DNA from: Eubacteriales bacterium | GTDB lineage: Bacteria > Bacillota > Clostridia > Oscillospirales > CAG-272 | Direction of reading: 5' to 3' | Assembly: GCA_045643285.1 (NCBI GenBank) | Contig: JAZUKN010000057.1 | Span: 10,076-74,075, forward strand | Length of the DNA stretch: 64,000 nucleotides | Shown here: positions 4,484 to 51,726 of the stretch, piece after piece | How the letters are laid out: each line of letters opens with the position of its first letter | How positions within the stretch are numbered: position 1 is the first letter of the stretch | Made by a program: the position numbers and the translations under genes | The notes under the pieces: generated by a model | What the model was told of the DNA's origin: nothing | The model's input: the letters and a program-made list of their open reading frames with translations, nothing else | Databases searched by the model: none

Positions 4484-5854
4484 TCAGACAAACAGAGAAA
4501 CGAGAAGTACGTTCAGGATTGCGGCAATACCGATAATGAGCGTACCGAGAGACTGTGTCTTGTAACCGTCCTGAGCCTTCATTTCACCGAAGTTGGTAAC
4601 AACCCAGAAGTAACTGTCGTTTGCGTGAGAAACAACCATTGCGCCTGCACCGATAGCAACAACTACGAGAGCTGCCTGTACGGGTGTGGTCCAGCCGAGA
4701 GTAGCCATCATCGGAGCGATGATACCTGCGGATGTTGTGATCGCAACTGTGGAAGAACCCTGAGCTGTCTTGAGGATAGCTGCAAGGAGGAACGGGAATA
4801 CGAGACCTATAACCTTGAGAGCGTCTGCACGTTCGCTGATGAACGCGATAAGCTCTGTGGAAGCGATGACCTTACCGAGAACGCCGCCTGCTGCCGTTAC
4901 GAACAGGATCGGACCGGTGGTCTTCAGTGTTTCGTTTGTGATGTCGTAGAATTCTTTGCCCTTCTTAGCCCAGAGGAGAAGAAGAACGCCGATGATAACG
5001 CCTACTGCGAGAGCGATGATAGGTGTGCCGAGGAATGTAATGATTGCAACCTTAAGACCTGCCATGGAGAATGCGCAGGAGAGGCCCATGAGGATGATCG
5101 GAACAACGATCGGAGCAAATGCAGCAAATCCGTTCGGGAGTTTGCCGTAGCTTGCTACGAGTTCTTCGTATGTCTGACCGATAGCTTCGTCGTTTGTGGG
5201 TTCGTCAGCTGCTTTAACCTTCTTGCCGATGATAACTGCGAAAATGCAGCCTGCGATGAGCGGGAGGATAGAGCAGATAGCGCCGATGAGCATTACCTGG
5301 AGAAGGTTAACGTCTGTGGAGCCGAGGCCTTCTGTGTAAAGTGTGTTAGCTGCAGCGATCGGGCCGGGTGTCGGCGGGATGAAGCAGTGGGAGATATAAA
5401 GACCCATGGAGAGAGCGACTGTGCAAGCTACGGAAGACTTGCGTGTTCTCTGAACGAGAGCCTTACGGATCGGGTTGAGAACTACGAAACCGGAGTCGCA
5501 GAATACGGGAATGGATACGATCCAGCCCATGATGAGCATTGCGATTTCGGGGTGGTTCTTGCCGACGAGTTTTACAACGCAGTCAGCCATTTTCAGAGCC
5601 GCGCCGGTCTTTTCAAGAAGAATACCGACGAGCGCACCGAGGATGATAACGATACCGATGCTTGTGAAGGTTCCGGAGAAGCCTGCACCGATGATGCCGG
5701 GGATAGCTGTGATGTCTTTAATTGCAAGGAGTGCGAGAATGAGCGAAACGCCCATAATGGAAAGGAACGGGTGGATCTTCCACTTCGAGATCGCAACGAT
5801 CATGAGAACGATTGCAAGCACGAAAGCAACAAGAAGCCAAATGCCTGTTAACAT
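4484..5854 (-). CDS. GntP-family organic-acid permease
   Basis: 456-aa polytopic membrane protein with GntP/DsdX-like sequence throughout. It lies immediately upstream of the glycerate kinase on the same strand. Confidence 0.88.
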   Translation of the reverse strand: MLTGIWLLVAFVLAIVLMIVAISKWKIHPFLSIMGVSLILALLAIKDITAIPGIIGAGFSGTFTSIGIVIILGALVGILLEKTGAALKMADCVVKLVGKNHPEIAMLIMGWIVSIPVFCDSGFVVLNPIRKALVQRTRKSSVACTVALSMGLYISHCFIPPTPGPIAAANTLYTEGLGSTDVNLLQVMLIGAICSILPLIAGCIFAVIIGKKVKAADEPTNDEAIGQTYEELVASYGKLPNGFAAFAPIVVPIILMGLSCAFSMAGLKVAIITFLGTPIIALAVGVIIGVLLLLWAKKGKEFYDITNETLKTTGPILFVTAAGGVLGKVIASTELIAFISERADALKVIGLVFPFLLAAILKTAQGSSTVAITTSAGIIAPMMATLGWTTPVQAALVVVAIGAGAMVVSHANDSYFWVVTNFGEMKAQDGYKTQSLGTLIIGIAAILNVLLVSLFV

Positions 5855-7975: not shown

Positions 7976-8053
7976 TCCGGCAAAAAACGTCCTTTTTTCA
8001 CCTGAACGTCCTTTTGTCGATCGTGTTTTCAGCGCGATTACCTCCGAAACGGT

Positions 8054-8953: not shown

Positions 8954-8965
8954 AAAAGTATCTCC

Positions 8966-10465: not shown

Positions 10466-10485
10466 TTTATGTCCTTAGTTTATCT

Positions 10486-10953
10486 TTATGACCGTTTCGG
10501 AGATTTCAGTACCTCGGAGTCGAGTTGTATCGTAACAGGACCGTCGTTCATAATGGAGACTTCCATGTGAGCGCCGAACACGCCGTGGCTGACCTTATCG
10601 GTGTACTTTTTTATATATTCGGTGAAATATTCGTACAGCGGTTCTGCGACCGATGGAGCGGCGGAGTTGAGGTAGTCCGGTCTGTTGCCTTTGCGGTACG
10701 CGGCGTACAGCGTGAACTGCGACACGACGATTATTCCGCCGTCAACGTCCGTGACCGAGAGATTCATTTTGTCGTTCTCGTCGGAGAAGATGCGGAGCTT
10801 TGCTATTTTGTCGGCGAGAAGCTCCGCGTCGGTCTTTGTGTCGGTGTGAGTCACGCCGAGGAGGATAAGAAGTCCTTTGCCGTCGCAGTTCGCAACAGTT
10901 TCGCCCTCGACAACGACCTTACCGCCGTTTATTCTCTGTATCAGTGCAAGCAT
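10486..10953 (-). CDS. dtd: D-aminoacyl-tRNA deacylase
   Basis: 155 aa. SQFTLYA and NDGPVTI motifs are present, and it lies immediately downstream of relA as in many Firmicutes. Confidence 0.93.
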   Translation of the reverse strand: MLALIQRINGGKVVVEGETVANCDGKGLLILLGVTHTDTKTDAELLADKIAKLRIFSDENDKMNLSVTDVDGGIIVVSQFTLYAAYRKGNRPDYLNSAAPSVAEPLYEYFTEYIKKYTDKVSHGVFGAHMEVSIMNDGPVTIQLDSEVLKSPKRS

Positions 10954-10973
10954 TTTAGTATTCCTTTATTATA

Positions 10974-13208
10974 TCATGTATATCCGCGCGTTACGGAATG
11001 GACGTGATTTATCGAGCGCAGACGCGACATGATCGAATTGTAGTGTTCGATGTTCTTGCATCCGACTGTCAGCATTATGATGATGTCGTTCTCCGTCCGC
11101 TTTTTCGTATTGATCGAGAGAAGCGTCACTTTCATATCGGCTATCGCCATTGTGATATTGGCGATAAGCGTCATATCGTTCTCGGCATAGATCTGGAGCG
11201 CGACCTCGTACAGCGCACGTCCGTTTTCCTGCATAAAGTCGTCCTTGTCCCACTCCGCTCTGAGCCAGCGTTCGCGGAGCTGTTCGTTGTCCAAGCCCTT
11301 TACTGCATTCGGGCAGTCGCGCTTGTGGATAGACACGCCGTAACCCTTTGTGACAAAGCCGATAATATCGTCTCCCGGGAGAGGATTACAGCATTTTGCG
11401 AACTTGACTTCGCATCCGTACTCGCCGTCGACGATAACGCCGCCTGTGTGACGGACTCTCTTTGAGGTCTGCGTCTGTACCTGATCGGTGTCCGTGATGA
11501 CGGGCTGCTCTTCGGGCTTGACGATGCGCTCATATTCGGGCTTGAGTTTTGTCAGTACTTTTGAAACCGTCAGTCCGTTGTAACCGAGAGCATTATAGAG
11601 GTCGTCGGGATCGTTCATACCGAGCTTTGACGCAGCGGCGGCGACGATCTCCGCTTTCTGTGCTTCGGTGGGCTTTACGCGGAAACGTGAGAACTCTTTG
11701 TCTAATTCGTCCTTGCCGATCTTGATATTCTCAGGCCGTTTTTCTTTTTTGAACCACTGGCGTATCTTCGTTCTTGCTTCGCTTGTCTTGACGATAGCGA
11801 GCCAGTCTCTCGACGGCCCTTTCGACGAAGACGACGTGATTATCTCGACGATGTCGCCGGTCTGCGGCACCTTGTCGATCTGCGTTATCATTCCGTTTAT
11901 CTTCGCGCCGACCATTTTATTGCCGACTTCGGAGTGAATCGCGTAAGCAAAGTCAATGATAGTTGAGCCTTGCGGAAGTGCGATAACGTCGCCTTTCGGA
12001 GTGAATACGAACGTTTCGTCGGAGAAAATGTCTATCTTCAGGGCGTGCATGAAGTCTTCGGACTCGATGACGCCGTCCTCAACGTCGACGAGCTTCGACA
12101 CCCATTCGAGCTTTTTGTCGATCTCTTCCTTGCTCTTTGCACCCGACTTGTACTTCCAGTGCGCCGCGATACCGTACTCAGCGATATGGTGCATCTCGCG
12201 CGTTCTTATCTGAACTTCAAACGGGATACCGTCGCGTCCGATGACGGTGGTGTGAAGCGACTGGTACATATTCGGCTTAGGCGTTGAAATGTAATCCTTG
12301 AAGCGTCCGGGCATTGACTTGAACATTTCGTGGATGATACCGAGCGCGGTGTAGCATTCAAGCTCCGTATCGACGATTATTCTTATCGCATAGAAGTCGT
12401 ATATCTCATCGAACGACTTATCCTGTCTGAACATCTTGCGGTAGATCGAATAAACGGTCTTTACACGTCCTTCGAGCGTGTAGTGGATGTTGTATTCATC
12501 GAGCTTTGCGGACACGACTGCGCGCGTGTTTTCGATAAAATCGTGGTTCTGACCGTATTTGTCTTCGATATATTTCGACACCTGCGCGTGTCCTATCGGA
12601 TCGAGGTACGACAGTGCAAGGTTTTCAAGCTCCTGCTTTATCCTCTGCATACCGAGACGGTGAGCGAGCGGCGCGTAAACGTACATCGTTTCAAGAGCGG
12701 TGGCACGACGTTTTTCTTCTTTCTTCACGCCGAGAGTCTTCATATTGTGGAGTCTGTCGCAGAGCTTGATGAAGATGACGCGGATGTCCTTTGACATGGC
12801 AAGGAGCATCTTGCGGATGTTCTCGATGTTTTCTTCTTCCTTATCCTCGACGTTGATCGACTTCATTTTCGTCAGTCCGTCGACGAGCATTGCGACTTCA
12901 TCACCGAAGCGCGCGCGTATCTCGTCAAGGCTCGTCTTGTCGGCGCAGTCCTCGACTGTATCGTGCAGAAACGCCGCGCAGATAGAGTCGGTGTCAAGTC
13001 CGAGAGAGGTCACTATCTCCGCTACCGCTATGGGGTGGGAGATATACGGGTCTCCGCTGACTCTGAACTGCCCCTCGTGGAGCGACTTTGCGTAAAGGAA
13101 CGCTCTTTCGATCTTTTCGATGTCGTATCGGTGGCCGTTTGTCGAAAGAGTGTTTATAAGTCCGGCAATTTCCGGATATTCCGTGGAAGTAATTTCTGTG
13201 TTATCCAT
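10974..13208 (-). CDS. relA: Bifunctional (p)ppGpp synthetase/hydrolase RelA/SpoT
   Basis: 744 aa. It has an HD hydrolase region (HPIAVA, HDTVED), a synthetase region (YRSLHTT-like QSLHTTV), a TGS domain and a C-terminal ACT-like domain. Confidence 0.95.
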   Translation of the reverse strand: MDNTEITSTEYPEIAGLINTLSTNGHRYDIEKIERAFLYAKSLHEGQFRVSGDPYISHPIAVAEIVTSLGLDTDSICAAFLHDTVEDCADKTSLDEIRARFGDEVAMLVDGLTKMKSINVEDKEEENIENIRKMLLAMSKDIRVIFIKLCDRLHNMKTLGVKKEEKRRATALETMYVYAPLAHRLGMQRIKQELENLALSYLDPIGHAQVSKYIEDKYGQNHDFIENTRAVVSAKLDEYNIHYTLEGRVKTVYSIYRKMFRQDKSFDEIYDFYAIRIIVDTELECYTALGIIHEMFKSMPGRFKDYISTPKPNMYQSLHTTVIGRDGIPFEVQIRTREMHHIAEYGIAAHWKYKSGAKSKEEIDKKLEWVSKLVDVEDGVIESEDFMHALKIDIFSDETFVFTPKGDVIALPQGSTIIDFAYAIHSEVGNKMVGAKINGMITQIDKVPQTGDIVEIITSSSSKGPSRDWLAIVKTSEARTKIRQWFKKEKRPENIKIGKDELDKEFSRFRVKPTEAQKAEIVAAAASKLGMNDPDDLYNALGYNGLTVSKVLTKLKPEYERIVKPEEQPVITDTDQVQTQTSKRVRHTGGVIVDGEYGCEVKFAKCCNPLPGDDIIGFVTKGYGVSIHKRDCPNAVKGLDNEQLRERWLRAEWDKDDFMQENGRALYEVALQIYAENDMTLIANITMAIADMKVTLLSINTKKRTENDIIIMLTVGCKNIEHYNSIMSRLRSINHVHSVTRGYT

Positions 13209-15480: not shown

Positions 15481-16160
15481 TTGCACGAAGTGCAAACATC
15501 ATTTTTCTTTTACTTGCACAAACCTCATTAAGACAAAAGGAAGAAAACGTTTCACGTTTTCAATTTCATCTTTCTGTCCTGTTCGTTTACGAACGGGCGG
15601 ACGGCGCACAAGCCGAGTTCACTCCGTGAACTCGTCGAGATGCTCCGCATCTCGGTGAGTCACTTTCGCGGACTCCTTGCCAATCCACACGACTTAGGGG
15701 GAAGGTTGCTTCGCTCTATTCACGCCTACCGACTTCGTAAACGAAGTCGTCGAGATGCTCCGCATCTCGGTTGAACCCCTTTGTTTCAGAGTAAATGCAA
15801 CTCAATTATTTATCTTACCATTTAAAAACGACTACGTTTTACTTCATAATGAGCGTCAGCGCGCTATTATTATCGATCTAAATCCTCTACACCGTCGCAC
15901 TCGCTTTGTGACAAAGGGGAGTCCAGAGGGGGAATGAGCTTGCTCCTTCCCCCTTTGGCGGGATGATTCACAAGAAGGCCGCGTCGGTCTTCTTGTGCGC
16001 CCCGCGCGTAGCGGAAAACCGATACTAAACGTAGAGTTTGTGCAGATTCCGCGGGAGGGGAAACCCCTCCCCTACGGTGTATGTGGTGAAAAAAGTGTGA
16101 TTACGCGCGTAGCCGCGAAGAAAACTGAATTTTGAAAACGTCCCCGACGTTTTCTACCTT
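15481..16160. repeat. Double copy of the mosaic hairpin-module repeat (left arm 15513..15812 forward, core 15813..15895, right arm 15896..16160 inverted)
   Basis: Perfect hairpins lie at 15481..15495, 15543..15561, 15578..15597, 15615..15633, 15636..15654, 15730..15749, 15751..15769, 15969..15997, 16053..16071 and 16134..16154. The region is homologous by eye to 44920..45560 and to single copies elsewhere. Confidence 0.9.
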
Positions 16161-16178: not shown

Positions 16179-16619
16179 CTATTTATTAGCCGAAACAATG
16201 TCGACTATTTCTATATCCGGCTCTTTTTTTCTTTTTGTTCTGTCAAAAACCGCTATTCCGGCGAAGGTCAGCACAAATCCGACTGCCGCGCCGATCAGTC
16301 CCGATGCTTCCGTATGCCACACGCTGTCCGCTACGATATATCCGGCAACTGCCACAACGAGCGGCAGAATGAACACGAGTGCGGCGTATCCGAGGACTTT
16401 TTTGCTCTCCGTTTCCACCTCAACCGTATCTCCGACCTTTGCGCCGAGCGCATTTTTCGCCTTTGTTTTCATCTTTCCACCGGTCGAAAGCAGTCCTGTT
16501 ATTTCGCATTTTCCGTCACAGCCGCCGTGCTTCTCGCATCCGTCGCACATTGTGGCGCGGCTGACTTCTATCACTGCTTCTTTTCCGTTCGTTTCAAGTA
16601 CAACAGCACGCTGGCGCAT
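16179..16619 (-). CDS. SoxR-reducing system RseC-family protein
   Basis: 146 aa. The N-terminal Cys-rich segment is CDGCEKHGGCDGKC, and two C-terminal TM helices give the typical RseC/MucC layout. Confidence 0.78.
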   Translation of the reverse strand: MRQRAVVLETNGKEAVIEVSRATMCDGCEKHGGCDGKCEITGLLSTGGKMKTKAKNALGAKVGDTVEVETESKKVLGYAALVFILPLVVAVAGYIVADSVWHTEASGLIGAAVGFVLTFAGIAVFDRTKRKKEPDIEIVDIVSANK

Positions 16620-16647
16620 GGAAAACCTCCGTTTGTTTGATTCCTTT

Positions 16648-18231
16648 TTAATCAGCCCTGTATTTTGCCATTACGGCACGGGCAATTCTTATCCCGTCCA
16701 CTGCGGCTGAGACTATCCCACCGGCGTAACCGGCACCCTCTCCGCAGGGATATATCTTATTCTTTCCGACTGCCAGAAAATCGTCGCCACGCATTATTCT
16801 GACCGGTGCGGACGTTCTCGTCTCCACTCCCGTGAGCGGAACACAGCCGTCGTCGTAGCCTCTGATCTTTCTGCCGAAATCGTACAGTCCCTCGCGGAGC
16901 ATTTCCGTAACGAATCCCGGAAAAATCTCGGAAAAATCCGCGCATTTGACACGTCCGTCGCGGTACGTCGGAACGATTTTTGAATACTCTTCTCCGCGCT
17001 TGCCGCTCATGAAGTCTCCGACTGTCTGGAACGGTGCGGTATAGTCCCGTCCGCCGGAGACGAAAGCCTTTTTTTCAAGCGTGCGCTGAAATTCTATCGC
17101 GTTTGCGGCGTTGTTTCCGAAATCCGACGGCAGAACAGACACACACACCGCGGCGTTTGCGTTCCGTCCGTCTCTTGCGCGTGTGCTCATGCCGTTTGTA
17201 ACGACTCCGCCCTCTTCGCTCGTCGACGGTACTACAGTTCCTCCGGGGCACATACAGAACGTATAACACCCTCTCTCGCCCTTGCGGTATGAAAGCTGAT
17301 ATTCGCCCTTGCCGAGTGAAACGTCGCCTGCATGTGCGCCGAAGAGAGCCTTGTCTATGTCACTTTGCAGATGCTCCGCTCTTACGCCGACTGAAAACGG
17401 CTTCGGTTCGACGACAAATCCCGCCGAGATAAGCTCGCCGTAAGTATCGCGTGCGCTGTGGCCCGTTGCGAGGATCAGCGCGTCCGTTTCGATCTCTTCG
17501 CCGTCGGCAGTCAGTCGCCCGTCGCGGATGTTTCCGGCGGTGGTTTTGTATCTTATCTCACCGCCAAGTTCCGTTATCCGTCTGTCGATATTCTTCACGA
17601 CCTCGCGGAGTACGTCTGTGCCGATGTGCGGCTTCGCTTTATAGAGAATATCCTCCGGCGCGCCCATTTCGCTGAGTTTTTTGATAACGTACCGCGCAAG
17701 CGGATCGTTTATCCTCGTTGTGAGCTTTCCGTCGGAGAAAGTACCTGCACCGCCTGCGCCGAACTGGATGTTCGTATCGGTGTCGAGTACGCCGTCTCTG
17801 ACGAAATGCTCGACTGCCGCCACTCTTTCGTCGACCGACGCGCCTCTTTCGATAACGAGCGGCTTATATCCGTTCTCTGCGAGCAGAAGTGCGGCGAACA
17901 TTCCGGCAGGTCCGAAGCCTACGATTACGGGACGACCGTTCATTTTTTCGGTGCCGAAGGTCACATCGGGATCGGCTTCCGAATACACGCGGATGCGGCT
18001 GTCTTCGGTTTTCGGCTTTCCGTCGATCTCGGCGTAGACCGTGTAAACGAACGTGATGCCGTGCCGCGCGTCTATAGATTTTTTCGATATATGGAGATTC
18101 GTCGGACGTGCGCCCGTCTGTTTGCGGATATACGAAGCGGCTGTCTGTATTGCCGCGCCGTCAAAGTCGCTCTCTCCCTCGCGGTATGCGACCTTAACGC
18201 CCGTCACTTCGATTTTTGTGAGTTCTTTCAT
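16648..18231 (-). CDS. FAD-dependent oxidoreductase (COG2509-like NAD(FAD)-utilising dehydrogenase)
   Basis: 527 aa with dinucleotide-binding VIVGFGPAGMFAALLLAE and a C-terminal GEGAGYAGGI motif. Confidence 0.82.
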   Translation of the reverse strand: MKELTKIEVTGVKVAYREGESDFDGAAIQTAASYIRKQTGARPTNLHISKKSIDARHGITFVYTVYAEIDGKPKTEDSRIRVYSEADPDVTFGTEKMNGRPVIVGFGPAGMFAALLLAENGYKPLVIERGASVDERVAAVEHFVRDGVLDTDTNIQFGAGGAGTFSDGKLTTRINDPLARYVIKKLSEMGAPEDILYKAKPHIGTDVLREVVKNIDRRITELGGEIRYKTTAGNIRDGRLTADGEEIETDALILATGHSARDTYGELISAGFVVEPKPFSVGVRAEHLQSDIDKALFGAHAGDVSLGKGEYQLSYRKGERGCYTFCMCPGGTVVPSTSEEGGVVTNGMSTRARDGRNANAAVCVSVLPSDFGNNAANAIEFQRTLEKKAFVSGGRDYTAPFQTVGDFMSGKRGEEYSKIVPTYRDGRVKCADFSEIFPGFVTEMLREGLYDFGRKIRGYDDGCVPLTGVETRTSAPVRIMRGDDFLAVGKNKIYPCGEGAGYAGGIVSAAVDGIRIARAVMAKYRAD

Positions 18232-18238
18232 TACGTCT

Positions 18239-19501
18239 TTACGTTTCTTTTCCGAATGTCACGTTTACATAGTATGTCCCGACGGGAAGCACGCCGTCCG
18301 CGTCTCCTTCGGGGACTTCAATGTCCGCTTTGATGCGTATGTCTCCGCTGTTCGAGTCTGAATACGGGCTTACGTCAAACGATATTTTTATGTCATCGGG
18401 TTTGAGACGTGCGAGGACTTCCGTCTTTCCGAGAAGCTCGACCGTGATCGGTGCTTCCTGCCACGTGAATTTTACTCCTCCGACTCCCTTTGCGCTGATA
18501 TTCTCTTCGGGAACGGTAAACTCGCGCACTGCATAACCGGGTTTGAGGGTTACGGTTATCTTTGCTTTCTGAGCGGACAACTCGAGTCCGTCTTCAGCTT
18601 CGATCGTAACGACGCTCGAATAGATACCGCCGTGCATCGCGCTCTTTTCGTCTATCACAACGGGGAGGATGCAGTCGCCGCGGTTAACGGTATCGGAGTC
18701 TCCCGTGACTTCGACAAATTCGGGATCGACGAACACGTTCGCGCTGTCGTATGAAAGGAATCCGTTCCTGAACTTCACTTCGACCGGTACGCGCGCTGTC
18801 TTCATTATTGTAACGGGTGCGGTCACTTCTTTCGGGAAATAGTCGATATACGGGCTTTCAACAACTGCGCCTGCAGCGTCGACAAGGGTGATCCTCTCGG
18901 TCACTGTCGTAGTCTTCGTGATGCCGGACATATCGAGCGTCACAACGGCTTCGGCAACCTTTGTGAGCATTGAGAGCGGCCCCGTTACCGTAACTTTATC
19001 GACATCGTATTCGATAGCTCCGGTGAAGCATCCCTCTGGAAGATCGGTGTTCTCGCGCTTCTCGGCGAGGTCTACCGTTATCTGACCGGAGCGGTCAACA
19101 TAAACAGACACGGTATCCTGCGACACGCCGATGAGCTTGCAGCCCACCGGAACATCGACTACCGTTTTGAGGCTGTAGCGTCCGCTCGCTTCAATGCGCG
19201 AGAGATCAGCCGTAACGACGATATCCTCCGCCGCAAGACGGGACACGATGCTCTTTTTTCCGGACAGCGTCACGTCGATCTTCATACCGTAGCCGGAGAA
19301 GATCGCAAGTTCGTTTTCGGCGAGCTTATCCGTTCCCGTAAGCTCTACGGTGACGTCGCTGACCGTCTGACTGTACTTCGGGCTTTCGACGTTCATAACG
19401 TAAACCCACATTCCGAACGCAACGATCACGCACACTGCGAATGCGATGATCGAAGTAACTTTTTTATTGTTCTGTTTCTTGTTTTTTGTTTTTTCAGCCA
19501 T
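18239..19501 (-). CDS. cdaR: YbbR-domain protein CdaR (diadenylate cyclase regulator)
   Basis: 420 aa with an N-terminal TM anchor and repeated YbbR-like beta-rich segments. It lies directly downstream of cdaA. Confidence 0.85.
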   Translation of the reverse strand: MAEKTKNKKQNNKKVTSIIAFAVCVIVAFGMWVYVMNVESPKYSQTVSDVTVELTGTDKLAENELAIFSGYGMKIDVTLSGKKSIVSRLAAEDIVVTADLSRIEASGRYSLKTVVDVPVGCKLIGVSQDTVSVYVDRSGQITVDLAEKRENTDLPEGCFTGAIEYDVDKVTVTGPLSMLTKVAEAVVTLDMSGITKTTTVTERITLVDAAGAVVESPYIDYFPKEVTAPVTIMKTARVPVEVKFRNGFLSYDSANVFVDPEFVEVTGDSDTVNRGDCILPVVIDEKSAMHGGIYSSVVTIEAEDGLELSAQKAKITVTLKPGYAVREFTVPEENISAKGVGGVKFTWQEAPITVELLGKTEVLARLKPDDIKISFDVSPYSDSNSGDIRIKADIEVPEGDADGVLPVGTYYVNVTFGKET

Positions 19502-19524
19502 AATAATCTCCGTCCGATCCGGTT

Positions 19525-20409
19525 TTATTCGCCCTTTGATGTTTTATCCTTCTGTGAGCGGAAAAGCGGCAGATGAATCTTTTCGTCTTCCTCTCCGACG
19601 AGCTTCGACTGCAAAAATGCGCGAAGCGTACCTTTGTTGTAGCCGCGGACGAGTTGTCCTTCGACTGCCGTGGAGATCGTTCCGGTCTCCTCGGATACGA
19701 TAACGACTATAGCGTCGCTTATTTCGCTCATTCCGATGCCTGCTCTGTGGCGTGTGCCGAGATCCTTGATAATATCGGGGTTATTCGACAGCGGAAGCAC
19801 GCATCCGGCGGCATACACGCGCTTATCGCGGATGATCATTGCGCCGTCGTGCATCGGTGCTTTATTGAAGAAGATGTTCTTTACGAGGAATGATGCAGGA
19901 TTTGCGTCGAGAACTGTGCCTGTCGAGATCGTCTCGCCGAGCTTTGTCGTGCGCTCGAAGACGATAAGTGCGCCGGTCTTTGAATCGGAAAGGTCGCACA
20001 CCGCGGATGTGACTTCGTCGATGACTTTAGTCATATCGGCAGTGCCGCGCGACTCGCCGATACTCTTCAGTCCTTTAAGCGGAGTCGTGCCGAACTTTTC
20101 GAGCATCGAACGAATCTCGGGTTGGAAGAGGATGACGAGCGTGATGAAGCCGATCTGGAATATGTTTTGCAAAATGTACGACATGAGGTACATATCGAGC
20201 ACGTCGCTGATGATCCGCACCGCTATGAGCAGGAGGACGCCGACGGCGAGCTTCCCTGCCCGTTTGTCGCGTATGAAGACGAAAAGATAATAAAGCAGTA
20301 CGGCAACGCAGAGAATATCGACAATGTCGATCAGCGAAATTGATTTTATTGTGCTCCAGATATCGGAAAAACCTCTGAAGTTTTCGACTGTGACGGATTG
20401 CGGATTCAT
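19525..20409 (-). CDS. cdaA: Diadenylate cyclase CdaA
   Basis: 294 aa with three N-terminal TM helices and a DAC domain carrying HDGAMII and TRHRAGIGMSE. Confidence 0.93.
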   Translation of the reverse strand: MNPQSVTVENFRGFSDIWSTIKSISLIDIVDILCVAVLLYYLFVFIRDKRAGKLAVGVLLLIAVRIISDVLDMYLMSYILQNIFQIGFITLVILFQPEIRSMLEKFGTTPLKGLKSIGESRGTADMTKVIDEVTSAVCDLSDSKTGALIVFERTTKLGETISTGTVLDANPASFLVKNIFFNKAPMHDGAMIIRDKRVYAAGCVLPLSNNPDIIKDLGTRHRAGIGMSEISDAIVVIVSEETGTISTAVEGQLVRGYNKGTLRAFLQSKLVGEEDEKIHLPLFRSQKDKTSKGE

Positions 20410-20472
20410 ATATTCAGTCGCCCCTTTCGCGCTCGTAATTTACGTTTATGAAAAATAATTATACTTATTATA

Positions 20473-20501
20473 AGTATAGCACATAATCAGCGGTTTTTCA
20501 A
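20473..20501 (-). promoter_or_regulatory. Putative sigma-A promoter for cdaA-cdaR
   Basis: On the minus strand: TTGAAA (20501..20496), 17-nt spacer, TATACT (20478..20473). Confidence 0.45.
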
Positions 20502-20560
20502 ATGTTTTTTTGTGATTTTTTAATTATTTTTGAAGATTTCTATGAGGATTTTCGAAAAAT

Positions 20561-20841
20561 CTCACGGCTTCGCACGAAATGTCATTTTCCACCGTAGGGC
20601 GGGGGTTTACTCCCGCCGCCGAAAGACTTGAGTTTACTTTATATAGGCAAAAGGTAGAAAACGTCTGCGACGTTTTCAGATTTATTTTTTGTCCTGTTCG
20701 CTTGCGAACGGGCGGACATCGGACAATTCATCCAAACCACACGTTTGGTGTCGTCTTTGTCCTACGCGGACGGCGCACAAGAGCATCGAATCATGGAGTT
20801 CACGAAGAGAACTCGGCTTGTCCGCCGTCCGCGTAAGACAA
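20561..20841 (+). repeat. Single forward copy of the mosaic hairpin-module repeat (truncated at the GRE promoter)
   Basis: Hairpins lie at 20598..20617, 20657..20677, 20693..20712, 20732..20748 and 20797..20813. A long outer inverted repeat gtcctacgcggacggcg / cgccgtccgcgtaagac spans 20759..20839. Confidence 0.85.
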
Positions 20842-20844
20842 ACC

Positions 20845-20873
20845 TTGACATATCCCCCAAAAACGGATATAAT
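20845..20873 (+). promoter_or_regulatory. Consensus sigma-A promoter for the glycyl-radical enzyme operon
   Basis: TTGACA (20845..20850), 17-nt spacer, TATAAT (20868..20873). A second TATAAT lies at 20881..20886. Confidence 0.7.
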
Positions 20874-20933
20874 TATACTGTATAATTTTTTGACGTAATT
20901 TCACAAATTTCGTCCACCGCGGAGGTGATCATC

Positions 20934-21704
20934 TTGACGCTCGTTGCAGACATCGAACGCTGCTCTACTCACGACGGTCCCGGACTGCGTACCGTAGTCT
21001 TCCTCAAGGGCTGTCCTCTCCACTGCGCGTGGTGCCACAATCCCGAATGTATATCTTTCGATGCGGAAGAGCTTTTCTACGCCGACAAGTGCATCAGATG
21101 CGGTCACTGCAAGGACGGCTGTGTCACCGGTGCGCGCGTCACCTGCGGACGTGAGATGACGGCTGACAAAGTCCTCGAAGAAGTCCTCGCTGACCGCGAT
21201 TACTACGGCAAAAACGGCGGCGTCACCGTCAGCGGCGGAGAGCCGCTCGCGCACCCCGATTTCACAAAAGAATTACTTTACAAATGTAGAGAAAACGACA
21301 TTAAAACAGCTCTCGAAACGTCGCTGTACCGATATGACGAAGAGATTCTTTCGCTCGTAGATGTGCTGATGACGGACATAAAGATCTTCGATTCAGTTGA
21401 ACATAAAAAATACACCGGGATCGGAAACGAAGAAATACTCGCAAACATAAAACGCGCCGATACACTCGACGTGCCGATCATCGTTCGCACGCCCGTTGTC
21501 ACGGGAGTGAACGACAGCGCGGAGAACATAAAACAGACTGCCTTCTTTGTCCGTTCGCTCAAAAACGCTGTGAAATACGAGCTTCTGCCGTATCATCCGC
21601 TCGGACTGACAAAGGCACGCGCGCTCGGCAGGGAAATGACCGAATTTTCGTCCCCTACAAAAGAAAAAATGGAGGAACTCAGACAATATGCTTACATACG
21701 CTGA
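20934..21704 (+). CDS. Glycyl-radical enzyme activating protein (radical SAM, PflA family)
   Basis: It carries CSTHDGPGLRTVVFLKGCPLHCAWCHNPE (the CxxxCxxC cluster) plus one ferredoxin-like CIRCGHCKDGC motif. I prefer the TTG at 20934 (GGAGG 9 nt upstream) to the ORF-track GTG at 20925, which abuts the RBS. Confidence 0.9.
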   Translation: MTLVADIERCSTHDGPGLRTVVFLKGCPLHCAWCHNPECISFDAEELFYADKCIRCGHCKDGCVTGARVTCGREMTADKVLEEVLADRDYYGKNGGVTVSGGEPLAHPDFTKELLYKCRENDIKTALETSLYRYDEEILSLVDVLMTDIKIFDSVEHKKYTGIGNEEILANIKRADTLDVPIIVRTPVVTGVNDSAENIKQTAFFVRSLKNAVKYELLPYHPLGLTKARALGREMTEFSSPTKEKMEELRQYAYIR

Positions 21705-23904
21705 CCGACTCGCACAAATGCGAAAAACAAAAATCGAGCACACATTCATAAAAAAACAGCAGAACGGCTTTACCGACATCGACGACTTCGGCACCGTTCC
21801 GCTTCCGGAGAATTATTCCGTCATGCCGTGGTATAACAGCGACAAAGGCAGTTTCTACGGGCTTGACGGCATGAGCGAGAACTTCTGCCGCGTCCTCGGT
21901 GCGCATCCGGCATACATCGATCCTATGGAAATGCTCTGCGGACGGTGGAGAGATATGCTCGTCAACTACCGCGGTGACATCCACTACGCGCCCGACTGGA
22001 TGAGAAAGAACAAAGAGCTGTTCGATCTCGTCTACGGCAACACTTCCGTTCAGTGGAGCAAATGCTGGGACGAAAAACGCTTCCCGTACGACGATCTGAA
22101 GCCACTGCAGAAGCTTTACAACATCCAGTCCGGCATCGACGGCGACGCACATCTCGCACCCGATTACCGCATCGGGCTGTCGCTCGGCTTCGGCGGACTG
22201 CTTGAGAAGATCGAGAAATACAGAAAGATAAACCCCGAAAAAAAGGCGTTCTACGACGCGGAAGAAAAGTGCGTCCGTGCGATAGTTGCGTTCATCGACA
22301 GGCATATCGAAAAGATCAAAGAAATGATCCCCGACGAGGAGCGTCCCGAAATCAAAGCATCACTCGAAAAGATGCTTACAGTGTGCGAAAACGTCCGCCT
22401 CGGTGTGCCGAAAACGTTCCACGAGGCTTGCCAGTGGGTGGCGTTCTACGTCTGCGCGACGCGCGTTTACACAAGAGACGGCGCGGGCTTCCAGCTCGAC
22501 ACTATCCTCCTGCCGTACTACGAAAACGACATAAAATCGGGCGAGCTTGACGACGGGACTGCAGTGTTCCTCATCGCAAATCTCTTGTTGATCGACCCGC
22601 ATTACTACCAGATCTCGGGTGTGGACGAGAACGACCGCGATATCACGAATCACCTTTCTTATCTCATTCTTGACGCAGCAGACGCGATAAACATATCCTG
22701 TAACCTCACGGTGCGTGTCCACGAAAACTGCGACGCGGATTTTCTCCGCAAAGCCGTCGGTTGCCTCCTCAAAAACAAGAACGGATGGCCGCGCTTCTGC
22801 GGTGACAAGTCCCTCTGCGACGGATATATGCGCTGGGGTATCGACAAGGAAACTGCACGTCAGCGTATCGCAGTCGGGTGCAACTGGATGGCGGTTCCGG
22901 GGCTTGAATTTCCGATGAATGACACCGTAAAGATCAATATTGCAAAGGTTTTCGACGTTGCAATGGCTGAAATGCATTCCGAGTCTGATAAATCGGTGGA
23001 AAAGCTGTTCGAGATATATGAAAAGCACCTCAGAAAAGCCGTAGAAGTCACGGCGGCAGGCGTGAATCTGCACCTCGACCACATCCACGACGTAACGCCT
23101 GAGCTTATAATGGATCTGATGTTCGTCGATTCTATTGAAAAAGGACTTGACGCGTCGCAGTGCGCGAAGCTCTATACAGTCGGCGTTGACGGTGCGGGAC
23201 TTGCAGTCGTCGCCGATTCGTTCGGTGCGCTGAAAACGAGAGTCGAAGACGAAAAGCGTCTCACATGGGACGAAGTATACGCCGCGCTTGATTCTGATTT
23301 TGCCGACGAAAGAGTACGGCTTATGCTCGCGTCATCACCGAAATACTGCGGTGGCGGTAACGTGTCTGATAAATTCGCGCAGAAGCTCACTGATTCGTGG
23401 GTGAAAGCCGTAACAGGTGCAAAAATGCCCGACGGACGGCACCTCGTTCCGGGGTGGTTCTCGTGGGCGCGGTCGATCGAATACGGCGCAGTCGTCGGCG
23501 CAACGCCGAACGGAAGAAAAAAAGGCGAGCCGATCTCGCACGGTGCGAACCCGAATCCGCATTTCCGTGAAGACGGCGCGGCTACGGCACAGTCGAACGG
23601 TATCGCGGCAGTACAGTGCGGCTGGGGCAACACTGCACCGCTCCAAATTGAATTTGATCCGAAGCTCGCCGATGACGACGGTGCTGTCGAGATAATCTGC
23701 GACTTTATTAAAGCGCATTTCGGACGCGGCGGCACACTGATCAACATAAACATACTTGACAAAGAAAAGCTCATGGAAGCGCACCGCGATCCGTCGACGC
23801 ATCCCGATCTTGTCGTGCGCGTTACGGGCTTCACGGCATACTTTGCGTCGTTGACGCCGGGATTCAGACAACTTGTGGTGAACAGGTTTATTGAGGGGAT
23901 GTAA
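21688..23904 (+). CDS. Glycyl-radical enzyme of unknown substrate (PFL-like fold)
   Basis: 738 aa. The C-terminal glycyl-radical motif is VVRVTGFTAYF (Gly714, codon 23827..23829). A single candidate thiyl Cys sits in AVGCNWMAVPG (Cys398, codon 22879..22881). Its start overlaps the activase stop by 17 nt. Confidence 0.9.
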   Translation: MLTYADRLAQMRKTKIEHTFIKKQQNGFTDIDDFGTVPLPENYSVMPWYNSDKGSFYGLDGMSENFCRVLGAHPAYIDPMEMLCGRWRDMLVNYRGDIHYAPDWMRKNKELFDLVYGNTSVQWSKCWDEKRFPYDDLKPLQKLYNIQSGIDGDAHLAPDYRIGLSLGFGGLLEKIEKYRKINPEKKAFYDAEEKCVRAIVAFIDRHIEKIKEMIPDEERPEIKASLEKMLTVCENVRLGVPKTFHEACQWVAFYVCATRVYTRDGAGFQLDTILLPYYENDIKSGELDDGTAVFLIANLLLIDPHYYQISGVDENDRDITNHLSYLILDAADAINISCNLTVRVHENCDADFLRKAVGCLLKNKNGWPRFCGDKSLCDGYMRWGIDKETARQRIAVGCNWMAVPGLEFPMNDTVKINIAKVFDVAMAEMHSESDKSVEKLFEIYEKHLRKAVEVTAAGVNLHLDHIHDVTPELIMDLMFVDSIEKGLDASQCAKLYTVGVDGAGLAVVADSFGALKTRVEDEKRLTWDEVYAALDSDFADERVRLMLASSPKYCGGGNVSDKFAQKLTDSWVKAVTGAKMPDGRHLVPGWFSWARSIEYGAVVGATPNGRKKGEPISHGANPNPHFREDGAATAQSNGIAAVQCGWGNTAPLQIEFDPKLADDDGAVEIICDFIKAHFGRGGTLININILDKEKLMEAHRDPSTHPDLVVRVTGFTAYFASLTPGFRQLVVNRFIEGM

Positions 23905-23911
23905 GGTATTC

Positions 23912-23982
23912 ATACGCGAAGCGTATATCATCCGTGAAACGGATATCATCGCGCAGCGATATCATCCGCGAATGCGGATATC
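23912..23982. repeat. Tandem array of four mini-hairpins separated by exactly ATC
   Basis: Hairpins are atacgc-gaa-gcgtat (23912..23926), atccgt-gaa-acggat (23930..23944), atcgc-gca-gcgat (23948..23960) and atccgc-gaat-gcggat (23964..23979). The array starts 8 nt after the GRE stop codon. Confidence 0.85.
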
Positions 23983-23995
23983 ATTATTCTTTAAC

Positions 23996-24535
23996 TTGCA
24001 CAAGCCACGTGGCTTCGCACGAAATACAAATCCACCTCCGGTAGGGGACGGTGTCCTCGACGTCCCGCGGATTTAGGCAAACCTCACTGCTACGCACGAA
24101 AAATCATTCTATACCGTAGGGGAGGGGTTTCCCCTCCCGCGGATTTGCACAAACCTCACAAAGGAAAAGGAAGAAAACGTCGGGAACGTTTTCAAATAAT
24201 CTATTTGTCCTGTTCGTTTACGAACGAGCGGACAGGCGCACGATTTTTCCAAACCGCACGTTTGGCTTCGGTGTGTCCTGTTCGCTTGCGAACGGGCGGA
24301 CGGCGGACAAGCCGAGTTCACTCCGTGAACTCAGTGAACGTCGCCTCCTTGTCAATCTACCCGCTTAGGGGGAAGGGACTTCGTCCTATTCACGCCTCCC
24401 GACTTCGTAAACGAAGTCGTCGAGATGCTTCGCATCTCGGTCTGACTCCCCTTTGTTGCAAAGCGAATGCAAATCTTTTGTTCGCTTTATCAAATTATTC
24501 ATTATTCATTCTTCATTATTCATTATTCATTTCAG
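23996..24535 (+). repeat. Forward copy of the mosaic hairpin-module repeat with an internally duplicated module, ending in AT-rich heptamer repeats
   Basis: Hairpins lie at 24002..24015, 24045..24066, 24120..24138, 24173..24193, 24209..24228, 24249..24265, 24277..24296, 24314..24332, 24400..24419 and 24421..24439. Five attattc-type heptamers occupy 24494..24528. It matches 15513..15812 closely by eye. Confidence 0.9.
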
Positions 24536-25152: not shown

Positions 25153-25998
25153 TTATCTGCGGCTCTCAAGCACCTTTTCAGCCATTAGATTACCGAGCCT
25201 TATTATGCTGTCCGAGTCGTAGTGCGCGAGGTCGGGTGCGTCGAGCGGCTCGCGTGTGACCGAAAGACCCTCAGCCTGCGTGTCGATGTAATAATAGTGC
25301 ATCTCACGCGCGTTTTCTTCTTTGCGGCGGTTCATTTCCCCGTTCTGCGGCCAAGACTTTGAGATACCGCAGTCGATCACGGCGCAGTTGCGGATGTATT
25401 CGCTGAACTCTGCCTTAAAATCGCCGATCAGGTTGTTGAACATCCTGATATAGTCGTCGACTTCGGGATCCGATTCGCCCTGCATCCAGCAGAACGCCGC
25501 TATTTCGGGGGCGTAACCCTGCTTTTCGAGCTTATCTATGCTTTCCGACAGCAACGCCCGGAACTCATTGTAGTACCAGCCGCGCTTGTAGCGATGTTTT
25601 TCGAGGTCGTTGTAGATATTCTCTCGGTCAATGCAACGCTCGTTATAGTCAAAATCCTCGACGGATGACGGGGACGCCCAGTCGTAACTGAGGGACGCAC
25701 CTCCGACCGCGCTCTTGACGATGAACCACTCGCCGTCCGCCGGATTTTTCGTCAATACTTCCGCGATACCAAGTTCGGGACCGACGGTGTCTTTCGTTTT
25801 TTCGGTGCAGCCCACAGTCGTCGGAACGAAGCCGTCGCTCCACTTGTCGTGTGAGAAGTAATTGATCTTCACGCTGTCGTATCCTGCGAGATATTCTTTG
25901 ACTTTCTCATCTGAGAAGTGGTCGCCGAGGTATTTTTTCCAGCCGACACCGACAGCATTCGACTGTCCTGCAAGAATCACGATGTTTGCTTTTTTCAT
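25153..25998 (-). CDS. SGNH/DUF303-type carbohydrate esterase (sialate O-acetylesterase-like)
   Basis: 281 aa. N-terminal IVILAGQSNAVGVG resembles the GQSNM motif of the sialate O-acetylesterase family. Confidence 0.65.
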   Translation of the reverse strand: MKKANIVILAGQSNAVGVGWKKYLGDHFSDEKVKEYLAGYDSVKINYFSHDKWSDGFVPTTVGCTEKTKDTVGPELGIAEVLTKNPADGEWFIVKSAVGGASLSYDWASPSSVEDFDYNERCIDRENIYNDLEKHRYKRGWYYNEFRALLSESIDKLEKQGYAPEIAAFCWMQGESDPEVDDYIRMFNNLIGDFKAEFSEYIRNCAVIDCGISKSWPQNGEMNRRKEENAREMHYYYIDTQAEGLSVTREPLDAPDLAHYDSDSIIRLGNLMAEKVLESRR

Positions 25999-44919: not shown

Positions 44920-45560
44920 GAAAGAGAGAAAACGTCAGAGACGTTTTTATTATCCTAACTTGTTTACAAGTGGGCAGACGGGTATTTATCCAAACCGCAC
45001 GTTTGGATTCGTTTTTCCGCTACGCGCGGGGGCGCACAAGAGCGTACCGCGACGCTCTTGTGAATCACCGCGCTTAGGGGGAAGGTCGCTGCGCTCTATT
45101 CCCCCTAAGAACCCCTTTGTTGCAAAGTAATTGCAAATCTATTATTATCTAATCATTTATTAACGATTATGTTATACTTTATAATGAGCGGCAGCGCGCT
45201 ATTATTAACGATCTAAATCCTCGAAAACGTCGCACTCGCTTTGTGACAAGGGAGATTCCAACCGAGATGCGGAGCATCTCGACGACTTCGTTTACGAAGT
45301 CGGTAGGCGTGAATTGACGAAGTCCTTCCCCCTTTGGTTCGGTGATTGACAAGAGCGTCGAATAACGCTCTTGTCCGCCGTCCGCCGCGTATACATATGC
45401 CGGACAAAAAGATGAATTTGAAAACGTCACCGACGTTTTCTACCTTTTGCCGATGTAAAGAGTGTGCAGATCGTTCGGCGGCAGGAGTAACGCGTATACA
45501 TACGCACTGCCCTACGGCATACAGGTGAAGTTCACGCGAAGCCGCAAAATTTGTGCAAAG
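44920..45560. repeat. Second double copy of the mosaic hairpin-module repeat (left arm 44920..45140 forward, core 45141..45230, right arm 45231..45560 inverted)
   Basis: Hairpins lie at 44928..44948, 44959..44970, 44990..45006, 45035..45062, 45073..45109, 45263..45281, 45283..45302, 45348..45375, 45420..45440 and 45492..45505. The core segment 45181..45222 matches 15846..15887 at 40 of 42 positions. Confidence 0.9.
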
Positions 45561-51682: not shown

Positions 51683-51726
51683 GAAGTAAAATGAATATGA
51701 AAGAAGTAGACAAAGTGATCAAAAAA

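Follow-up and report, generated by a model that had tools for sequence, protein, structure and literature searches.

What does a glycyl radical enzyme (GRE) do when nothing encoded around it hints at a substrate? The question is raised by an activase-GRE gene pair on a 64,000-nt stretch of DNA from an Eubacteriales bacterium (assembly GCA_045643285.1, contig JAZUKN010000057.1, positions 10,076 to 74,075 of the forward strand), which was analyzed whole and is referred to below as the window. The original prediction, made from the letters of the window, regarded the enzyme as an orphan with an unusual cysteine loop and no pathway neighbors, and proposed that its structure, its relation to characterized GREs and its genomic context in relatives be checked. 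We find that the query is one bare copy of a widespread GRE family, and the value of the observation lies in the family rather than in this locus. The query is very probably a functional GRE by its sequence features. The GREs that carry tryptophan two positions after the thiyl-radical cysteine (C-x-W) in all likelihood form a distinct, uncharacterized clade, and the genes conserved beside them in other genomes suggest a role in the anaerobic redox metabolism of carbohydrates. The complete reading, in which an active GRE of a new uncharacterized clade performs radical chemistry on a sugar-derived substrate, with elimination or isomerization as the favored outcome, is held with moderate confidence.

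The enzyme, its activase and the C-x-W clade

Pfam searches identified a PFL-like domain (PF02901, 297.8 bits) and a Gly_radical domain (PF01228, 44.8 bits against a cutoff of 22.2) in the GRE. HMMER alignments made with a single sequence or with a profile place G-C-N-W over G-C-V-E, such that Cys398 falls on the catalytic cysteine of PflD (8yjo) and of glycerol dehydratase (GD, 1r8w); Phe591 is aligned to GD Tyr640. The GD loop N-G-H281-S282-I-S corresponds to T-R-D-G-A-G-F-Q in the query, which is two residues shorter and family-invariant. Cys398 and Gly714 are separated by 316 residues. The glycyl region (RVTG714F-TAYFAS-L-TPGFR-Q-LV-V-N-R) agrees with the GRE fingerprint RVxG[FWY]x6-8[FL]x4Qx2[IV]x2R (PMC13450708) except for a one-residue shift (x5 before Q and x1 before R). 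Aminoacyl radical enzymes store the radical on alanine, serine or threonine rather than glycine (PMC13450708), and membership in that group was ruled out, the storage residue being Gly714 within a family-invariant R-V-T-G-F.

An AlphaFold2 (AF2) model predicted from a 67-sequence alignment (predicted local distance difference test score, pLDDT, 90.7; predicted template modeling score, pTM, 0.91) places beta-hairpins around Cys398 and Gly714 (strands 709-711 and 716-718). Compared by Foldseek with GD, PflD, propanediol dehydratase and YbiW, the model gave template modeling (TM) scores of 0.82 to 0.84 at 17% to 22% identity. An earlier model from a shallow alignment (pLDDT 74) was poor at the active-site loops and gave the same structural ranking. 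PF02901, the AF2 model and Foldseek all identify the ten-stranded beta/alpha barrel of PFL-like enzymes. The strand equivalent to the GD Tyr640 wall reads P-G-W590-F-S-W593-A-R and would also correspond to the CutC L698/I700 wall. Ratios of nonsynonymous to synonymous substitution rates (dN/dS), calculated against the two genomes that share the query's cluster at ≥90% identity (loci L009 and L094), are 0.06 for the GRE and 0.11 for the activase; the low values indicate that the bare query copy is maintained by selection. Motifs, domains, a confident model, the activase and purifying selection together argue for an intact catalytic apparatus.

The activase, a radical S-adenosylmethionine (SAM) protein, scored 270.3 bits with TIGR02494, the NCBIfam model of the GRE-activase subfamily (cutoff 174.35), and all named equivalogs fell below their cutoffs. 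Alignment of 73 family activases (median ~254 aa) shows conservation of C27, C31 and C34, C39, C53-x2-C56-x2-C59-x3-C63 and C71. The majority of GRE activases possess eight further cysteines, sufficient for a pair of auxiliary clusters, and those of pyruvate formate-lyase (PFL) and ribonucleotide reductase (RNR) have none (PMC13450708); with its single auxiliary cysteine motif, the family activase is therefore intermediate. The activases of distant C-x-W members are longer, at 297-340 aa, and match Fer4. Two long proteins were also noted: P0363 (1,054 aa) is a natural fusion that joins radical-SAM/ferredoxin activase domains to a C-x-W GRE in one polypeptide, and P0130 (1,052 aa), about as long, is a GRE with no annotation over its N-terminal 400 residues.

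Several statements of the original prediction are borne out by these data. The gene pair encodes a genuine GRE and its activase (by Pfam, TIGR02494 and the motifs themselves), Cys398 is the loop cysteine, and the G-C-N-W loop is neither the Cys-Cys pair of PFL nor the C-x-E type of the dehydratases and lyases. The single extra CxxCxxCxxxC motif of the activase was correctly seen as well, and represents a reduced auxiliary region to which one distal cysteine should be added.

A search of 5.8 billion proteins with the query GRE matched 1,915 protein clusters at a threshold of E ≤ 1e-20. The top 120 are 727-740 aa long and 72% to 92% identical to the query, and the named members among them are Clostridia or Oscillospiraceae, including Qingrenia yutianensis; proteins of this G-C-N-W gut family range from ~69% to 92% identity. 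A scan of one genome per species found relatives in 188 genomes, and almost all of the 80 best are labeled as metagenome-assembled genomes (MAGs) of gut or rumen Clostridia. Hadza and ruminant datasets are among those in which the family is common. In a 121-sequence alignment, 44% of positions are invariant, and all 121 sequences contain R-I-A-V-G-C-N-W-M (with Cys398 and its loop), His155, Asp159-Tyr160, Asp412 and V-V-R-V-T-G-F-T-A-Y-F. The loop had been taken for an oddity of one enzyme and proves to be an invariant signature. "Orphan" is apt for the query locus, which has no partners, and wrong for the family (1,915 clusters, 188 species genomes). Between the query and Q. yutianensis the GREs are 73% identical, the activases 55% and the neighboring CdaA proteins 39%; the gap between GRE and CdaA points to exceptional constraint on the GRE, or else to horizontal spread.

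HMMER searches of 1.84 billion representatives recovered graded relatives from 52% down to ~27% identity. For clade analysis, 96 full-length representatives were used, comprising 28 with C-x-W loops (x being N, H, F, Q, Y, G or P), 56 with C-x-E loops and 12 with other loops; the thiyl cysteine is present in all 96. The 28 C-x-W sequences are monophyletic with zero intruders in a neighbor-joining tree. Trp400 is found in 100% of C-x-W and 0% of C-x-E representatives, Asp412 in 100% versus 21% and Glu472 in 100% versus 5%, while His155 (in the motif G-x-x-H-x-x-D-Y) is kept in 89% and 93%, respectively. Further clade signatures are Glu407, Pro651 and Thr713. Median lengths are 734 aa for C-x-W and 787.5 aa for C-x-E, which agrees with the enzyme's description as short. 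As delimited here, the clade has G-C-x-W followed by P-G-x-E-[YF]-x3-D, equivalents of Glu472 and Pro651, and a length of ~700-775 aa; the query has C398-N-W400, P404-G-L-E407-F-P-M-N-D412, E472 and P651. Glu472 was considered as a relocated general base and was not adopted, since it aligns to GD Leu519, in a region that is not known to line the active site.

A profile of distant members extends the clade to Anaerolineae/Chloroflexota, Poribacteria, Firmicutes and Bathyarchaeota, where its proteins bear no annotation beyond "formate acetyltransferase" or "PFL family". The bathyarchaeal locus (L093, GCA_018397055.1) encodes an archaeal C-x-W GRE with an activase; none of the archaeal PFL-like GREs has a characterized function (PMC13450708).

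Comparison with characterized subfamilies revealed no tight clustering with any of them. Every NCBIfam GRE model scored far below its cutoff, and the equivalogs scored 4- to 10-fold below. The best was TIGR01774 (PFL2-3 subfamily; 254.8 bits versus a cutoff of 678.2), and other scores were 217.6 (cutoff 1109) for NF007437 (PflD-type), 197.7 and 190.3 (cutoff 1000) for HpfG/HpsG, 194.6 (1100) for HypD, 149.7 (1050) for CutC, 108.5 (1100) for NF033718 (indoleacetate decarboxylase), 104.2 (1150) for NF033715 (HPAD large subunit) and 61.9 (994.2) for TIGR01255 (PFL). Identity to all solved GREs is 17% to 22%. The C-x-E glutamate hydrogen-bonds the substrate and is retained in all six C-O eliminases, CutC, the C-S lyases and three isomerases, and the Cys-Cys pair occurs in PFL and TdcE only (PMC13450708). 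At the position that defines GRE 1,2-eliminases and isomerases the query has C398-N-W400. The hallmarks of the GRE decarboxylases (HPAD, PAD, IAD and AAD) are absent from the query, whose surroundings contain no small-subunit genes. The June 2026 GRE review (PMC13450708) mentions no C-x-W enzyme, and full-text literature searches combining glycyl radical enzymes with sugar-pathway terms found no paper on the C-x-W family.

Within the C-N-W family, the sub-clade of the query is distinguished by Pro158 and Ala402 in place of the majority residues Cys158 and Cys402, and by Leu406 in place of Lys or Arg406; all three positions are near active-site motifs. The two extra cysteines (H-F-A-C158-D-Y and G-C-N-W-M-C402) are present in ~96-98% of C-N-W members, but are missing both from the query with its nearest relatives and from the closest outgroups; by this distribution the pair looks like a derived feature. 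We considered whether Ala402, Pro158 and Leu406 mark a stand-alone functional subtype, as 4 of 5 loci with A402 are bare, and rejected the idea. P158 and A/S402 are also found in outgroups P0121-P0124, A402 had about six separate origins, and one member, P0011, has A402 and yet lies inside a full operon, so the three residues define no separate function. Because P0011 lacks Cys402 within that operon, the cysteine pair is not essential to the family reaction.

Gene neighborhoods and candidate chemistry

Neighborhoods were derived from crude gene calls (longest-open-reading-frame heuristics and BLAST clustering) at the loci of the best 80 of the 188 genomes, 58 of which include at least 5.5 kb of upstream sequence. 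Among these 58, an activase adjoins the GRE in 52, one or more Gfo/Idh/MocA genes (mode 3-4, maximum 5) are present in 51, a divergent AraC-type gene in 38, AP_endonuc_2 in 13 and a flavin adenine dinucleotide (FAD) oxidoreductase 3' of the GRE in 9; seven (~12%) are bare, without a Gfo gene. A PF12831 FAD oxidoreductase directly follows the GRE in 16-17 of the 80 loci. The gene order in Q. yutianensis and related contigs is AraC (divergent), Gfo/Idh/MocA, AP_endonuc_2, Gfo, Gfo, activase, GRE; relatives at 78% identity have AraC, four Gfo genes, the activase (in most cases) and the GRE, sometimes followed by the PF12831 gene. The original prediction saw no hint of a substrate; the Gfo/Idh/MocA, AraC and carbohydrate-active context of relatives supplies one.

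Two core Gfo orthogroups emerged from clustering the 80 loci. The first (~367 aa) lies directly 5' of the activase in 57 loci, and the second (~371 aa, canonical) is found in 45-50. Activase-proximal Gfo proteins (orthogroups 1 and 3, loci L010-L089; for example, 8157-9257 of Q. yutianensis locus L001) are without the GxGxxG Rossmann motif, keep EKP and begin with G-x-x-H-x-H within a conserved I-I-G-f-a-H-M-H-V-N-E; their closest solved structures match weakly (3oqb, 1.3e-09). Such a protein might bind its cofactor in an atypical way, or might partner the GRE in a role other than redox. The second-position Gfo of the same locus (7090-8160) matches the C-glycoside 3-oxidoreductase DgpA (7xr9) at 7.6e-55, and the AP_endonuc_2 partner is hydroxypyruvate-isomerase-like or ketose-epimerase-like.

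The query itself is a minority bare locus: the AraC and Gfo operon typical of the C-N-W gut family is absent from the window. Its cluster mates at ≥90% identity (L009 and L094) have, in a housekeeping region, Gfo, a GH4 alpha-galactosidase on the opposite strand, activase, GRE and DUF218. The query pair has been split from its partner genes in this genome yet kept by selection. The seven bare loci lie among carbohydrate-active genes, including glycoside hydrolases and polysaccharide lyases: a BNR/sialidase-like gene and an aldolase of the dihydrodipicolinate synthase (DHDPS) type at L059 and L060, GH36-, GH42- and GH78-like genes at L038 and L044, a GH88 gene with a tandem second activase-GRE pair at L073, and a heparinase II/III-like gene at L075. 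P0011 has ROK kinase and phosphomannose isomerase genes beside its operon.

Some loci depart from the one-pair arrangement. At L073 (9250-16457) the tandem pairs are split by the GH88 unsaturated glucuronyl hydrolase gene, and the second GRE open reading frame (ORF) is 778 aa long; two activase-GRE copies also occur in one Tyzzerella MAG (L082/L084) and one Clostridia MAG (L025/L059). In a 78% relative (L005/L006, 5564-12214) four Gfo genes precede a GRE that has no activase beside it, and the same contig has a second AraC, Gfo, Gfo, AP_endonuc_2, Gfo cluster (16268-21687) and a LarA-like (nickel-pincer racemase family) gene within 10 kb.

Similar partners recur outside the gut family. On a 5-Mb contig (L091) the order is XylR/AraC, Gfo, 3-keto-disaccharide hydrolase (PF06439), AP_endonuc_2, Gfo, Gfo, activase, GRE, Gfo; in a Clostridiaceae locus (L092) it is AraC-type response regulator and kinase, Gfo, Gfo, activase, GRE, CUT1 sugar ABC transporter, AraC, AP_endonuc_2. 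An Anaerolineae locus (L090) contains AP_endonuc_2, Gfo and enolase-superfamily genes, and the bathyarchaeal GRE lies among FGGY kinase, DeoC aldolase and transaldolase genes. In 78 environmental C-H-W loci (from the metagenome set L095-L174) the order is activase, GRE, URO-D-like protein (PF01208), SBP_bac_1 and two permeases, with a CUT1-type (sugar-type) ABC transporter directly downstream; Gfo genes are found in 11 of the 78 and MR_MLE in 4. The URO-D-like partner suggests a downstream step unlike that of the gut family.

In the mechanism standard for the superfamily, the activase, with its CX3CX2C motif, would abstract hydrogen from Gly714, and the glycyl radical would generate a thiyl radical on Cys398 that abstracts hydrogen from the substrate. 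Genomic context makes a carbohydrate-derived substrate probable, and we envisage a neutral molecule such as a glycoside, a cyclitol or a keto- or anhydro-sugar. In most relatives, this molecule would be made or consumed by co-transcribed Gfo/Idh/MocA dehydrogenases, which number one to five and include a DgpA-like enzyme, under AraC-type control; some operons also encode a xylose-isomerase-like TIM-barrel protein. Trp400 could form a sugar-stacking platform with W590, F591 and W593, and the aromatic-rich, polar-lined pocket suggested by active-site mapping fits what a sugar ring would be expected to need. Asp412, whose GD equivalent contacts substrate hydroxyls, is the best candidate to replace the C-x-E base, unless that base is unneeded because a carbonyl installed by Gfo enzymes is already on the substrate. 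GD His164, the equivalent of His155, is the proposed proton donor to the leaving group (PMC13450708). Since His155 and Asp412 are both retained, C-O bond-cleaving elimination or ring-opening isomerization is the outcome we would favor. Taken alone, the assignment to elimination or isomerization is tentative, its chances lying clearly below even. The enzyme probably catalyzes a new type of anaerobic reaction on carbohydrates. A bolder version holds that the C-x-W GREs are an eighth functional GRE class that performs an unprecedented radical carbohydrate transformation without the C-x-E base; for example, DgpA-like dehydrogenases would hand over a 3-keto- or anhydro-sugar, a C-glycoside or a cyclitol for cleavage or rearrangement. 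This is a real possibility, though one that falls somewhat short of an even chance.

A number of points weigh against radical elimination or isomerization of a sugar-derived substrate. Both substrate and reaction are predictions from genomic context, the neighborhoods depend on the crude gene calling described above, and the window itself is without partner genes. The C-x-E glutamate, catalytically essential in CutC and IslA (PMC13450708), is lost, and the chemistry may not be elimination. Replacement of the GD His281/Ser282 loop by the shorter T-R-D-G-A-G-F-Q means that the pocket is remodeled. Because the conserved neighbors of the C-H-W sub-clade (URO-D-like protein and ABC transporter) differ from the Gfo operon, the C-x-W clade is probably not isofunctional.

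With the same clade and carbohydrate context, other chemistry can be envisaged. A keto-sugar or C-glycoside might undergo radical C-C cleavage, a sugar acid might be decarboxylated, or the reaction might be an epimerization or an RNR-like reductive dehydroxylation in which the Cys158/Cys402 pair or formate serves as reductant. The glutamate that defines eliminases and isomerases is absent from 100% of the C-x-W clade, and decarboxylases can do without it, as the essential Gln484 of PAD implies a C-x-Q loop (PMC13450708). Most members carry C158 and C402 next to active-site motifs, and the PF12831 oxidoreductase encoded after the GRE could recycle a disulfide or an electron carrier; acidic-sugar neighbors (GH88, heparinase II/III, GH28, DHDPS-type aldolase, MR_MLE and URO-D-like) fit this reading too. 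However, the query, its nearest relatives and the outgroups have neither cysteine, P0011 does without Cys402 in a full operon, the retained proton-donor equivalent His155 fits elimination-type chemistry, and the best matches are PflD and GD rather than decarboxylases or XSS enzymes. We regard such chemistry as the main rival reading, though less likely than not. It is quite improbable, by comparison, that the query acts on a non-carbohydrate and that the Gfo association of relatives is not transferable to a bare copy. The lack of sugar-pathway genes in a mostly housekeeping 64-kb window, the sub-clade differences at P158, A402 and L406, and the ~12% of loci that are bare would all be explained in this way, but the query is 72% to 78% identical to operon-embedded members, with an identical Cys loop in a family in which 44% of positions are invariant. 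Its ≥90% cluster mates adjoin a Gfo gene and a GH4 glycosidase gene, P158 and A/S402 are ancestral-like (as in P0121-P0124) with A402 found inside a full operon, and the other bare loci are surrounded by carbohydrate-active enzymes.

A known eliminase or isomerase with a tolerated loop variant (glycerol or propanediol dehydratase, HypD, CutC, IslA or PflD/YbiW) would account for the best fold and HMM matches and for the His155 and Asp412 shared with GD. Equivalog scores 4- to 10-fold below cutoff, 17% to 22% identity, the change from Glu to an invariant Trp and the replaced GD loop leave this very improbable, as does the absence nearby of microcompartment, aldehyde dehydrogenase, phosphotransferase system (PTS) and aldolase pathway genes. 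Least probable of all is a pyruvate or 2-ketobutyrate formate-lyase, although relatives are annotated "formate acetyltransferase" or "pyruvate formate lyase family protein". The Cys-Gly spacing equals that of E. coli PFL (C418..G734, as given in the original prediction); the equality holds as arithmetic and carries no functional meaning, the enzyme being PFL2-like (TIGR01255, 61.9 versus 994). There is no Cys-Cys pair, and PFL structures match only the C-terminal third of the query.

The locus in the window

Coordinates of the gene pair, its motifs and the surrounding features are given in the table. The two co-directional ORFs overlap by 17 nt, and the same overlap is found at the Q. yutianensis locus (9250-10017 / 10001-12214) and is kept in relatives. 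The activase has two possible starts, GTG at 20925 and TTG at 20934. TTG is most likely, with a Shine-Dalgarno (SD) sequence GGAGG at 20921-20925, and matches the coordinate given in the original prediction. Promoter, SD sequences, overlapping ORFs and hairpin together make the locus an autonomous bicistronic unit.

Table. Features of the activase-GRE locus and other elements of the window (positions in the 64,000-nt window).
Feature	Position	Strand	Basis or remark
Sigma-70-type promoter, TTGACA-17-TATAAT	20845..20873	+	12/12 consensus positions; 5' of the activase-GRE pair
GRE-activating enzyme, radical SAM, 256 aa from TTG	20934..21704 (20925 from GTG)	+	ORF; Pfam Radical_SAM and Fer4_12; TIGR02494
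Radical-SAM motif C-P-L-H-C-A-W-C (CX3CX2C; Cys27/31/34)	21012..21035	+	72/74 aligned rows
Auxiliary motif C-I-R-C-G-H-C-K-D-G-C ... C (Cys53/56/59/63/71)	21090..21146	+	Half of the usual eight-Cys ferredoxin-like insert
GRE, 738 aa, C-x-W clade	21688..23904	+	ATG at 21688; SD GGAGGA at 21671-21676
His155 codon, aligned to GD His164	22150..22152	+	Alignment; family-invariant
Cys loop A-V-G-C398-N-W400-M-A-V-P-G, predicted thiyl-radical Cys	22870..22902	+	Translation; HMMER alignments
Asp412 codon, aligned to GD Asp447	22921..22923	+	Alignment; invariant in C-x-W
Glycyl radical motif R-V-T-G714-F-T-A-Y-F	23818..23844	+	Translation; Pfam Gly_radical; family-invariant
Weak terminator-like hairpin, 60 nt 3' of the GRE stop	23964..23979	+	6-bp stem, 4 G-C pairs, T-rich tail; consensus match only
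Intergenic block of dispersed repeat modules, 5' of the cassette	20560..20845		Not cassette-specific; no Rfam match
Intergenic block of the same dispersed repeat modules, 3' of the cassette	23985..24480		Recurs elsewhere in the window
Further repeat copies	near 15575-15771, 16048-16160, 44984-45460, 51722-51822, 54668-54782, 60289-60448		
CdaA	19525..20409		5' neighbor of the pair
SASA-family carbohydrate esterase (sialate O-acetylesterase-like)	25153..25998	-	1.2 kb 3' of the GRE
GntP-family permease	4484..5854	-	Far from the cassette
Class II aldolase and short-chain dehydrogenase fusion, 650 aa	51966..53918	+	~28 kb from the GRE

The 17-nt overlap and the perfect promoter reported by the original prediction were both found, and so was the lack of pathway neighbors, with cdaA on one side (together with YbbR/CdaR) and a GNAT gene on the other. 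By Pfam, no transporter, microcompartment, dehydrogenase or regulator gene lies within ~8 kb of the cassette. Searches of the 64-kb window with at least 20 partner-protein queries (among them FAD oxidoreductase, ROK, phosphomannose isomerase, DHDPS and BNR) gave no matches, and no homologues of Gfo/Idh/MocA, AP_endonuc_2, GH4 or AraC proteins were found anywhere in it. Pfam analysis of 29 further ORFs in the window identified housekeeping genes only. The SASA-family esterase is the sole carbohydrate-related gene near the cassette in this genome, and the GntP-family permease is the sole sugar-acid-type transporter seen in the window. The aldolase-dehydrogenase fusion has the architecture of bifunctional rhamnulose-1-phosphate aldolase/lactaldehyde dehydrogenases; no link to the GRE was established.

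On both sides of the cassette lie repeat modules, some direct and some inverted, and further copies occur in intergenic regions elsewhere in the window. They form a mosaic family, with examples such as TGTCCTGTTCGCTTGCGAACGGGCGGAC, GAAAACGTC..GACGTTTTC hairpins and CCGTAGGGGAGGGGTTTCCCCTCCCGCGG, and may be elements like the repetitive extragenic palindromic (REP) sequences or miniature inverted-repeat transposable elements (MITEs). An Rfam search of the whole window found no riboswitch or leader RNA that could serve as a substrate clue in the long flanking intergenic regions. The repeats were rejected as a clue to cassette function: with copies at six or more other sites they are dispersed through the window, and are therefore uninformative about the cassette. 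Relocation of the cassette by recombination between flanking repeats is plausible from their arrangement.

Comparison with characterized systems

GREs give anaerobes access to chemically hard reactions, and CutC, HypD, IslA and PflD/YbiW each exposed a host-relevant pathway of gut microbes. Solving the C-x-W reaction would reveal how a GRE works without C-x-E and probably a new anaerobic route for the breakdown of carbohydrates, glycosides or cyclitols. If the clade is indeed an eighth class, a widespread and so far unseen anaerobic sugar pathway would exist in abundant gut and rumen Clostridia, Chloroflexota, Poribacteria and Bathyarchaeota. The family is worth pursuing for its wide distribution, its unusual conservation, its loss of the catalytic glutamate and its operon, whose sugar dehydrogenases are relatives of the C-glycoside oxidase DgpA. 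It is directly testable because Q. yutianensis (GCA_014385105.1, contig JACRTE010000002.1) is a cultured host with a complete operon.

PflB and TdcE share with the query the GRE superfamily and a Cys-Gly spacing of 316, and differ from it in their Cys-Cys pair and in aligning over the C-terminal third only. Phenylacetate decarboxylase (PAD/PhdB) provides an example of a working GRE with a residue other than Glu two positions after the thiyl cysteine; PAD is otherwise unlike the query, with weak model similarity, an aromatic-acid substrate and another genomic context. GD (1r8w/1r9d), propanediol dehydratase, HypD, CutC, IslA/IseG and HpsG/HpfG have the same PFL2-type barrel (TM 0.82) and an adjacent TIGR02494-type activase, and His155 and Asp412 correspond by alignment to His164 and Asp447 of GD. 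Unlike these C-x-E enzymes, the query is without the C-x-E glutamate and without microcompartment or aldehyde-processing genes, its activase has about half the usual auxiliary cysteine complement, and T-R-D-G-A-G-F-Q stands in place of the H281/S282 loop of GD.

The operons of relatives resemble the 3-keto-glycoside pathways of DgpA/DgpBC, which cleave C-glycosides, in carrying a DgpA homologue, Gfo paralogs and AP_endonuc_2, and at L091 a 3-keto-disaccharide hydrolase domain. Pathways of this type are not known to contain a radical enzyme, whereas the GRE is the terminal and most conserved gene in relatives; AP_endonuc_2, moreover, is present at only 13 of 58 loci, and the query window has none of the partners.

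PflD and YbiW (8yjo, 8id0 and 8id7), isomerases of 1,5-anhydromannitol-6-phosphate and 1,5-anhydroglucitol-6-phosphate, are compared last. PflD is the best match by sequence and by profile (8yjo, 1.7e-53 with the single sequence and 2.9e-91 with the profile), and the two enzymes share with the query the fold (TM 0.80-0.84), the histidine of G-x-x-H-x-x-D-Y, the architecture of the Cys loop, an origin in gut bacteria and, probably, sugar-derived substrates. They are only 18% to 21% identical to the query, which is ~40 residues shorter, and the C-x-E glutamate that deprotonates the C2 hydroxyl in these isomerases (PMC13450708) is an invariant tryptophan in the query family. The family's context also differs, consisting of Gfo/Idh/MocA dehydrogenases without PTS, kinase or aldolase genes, and its substrate is therefore probably unphosphorylated.

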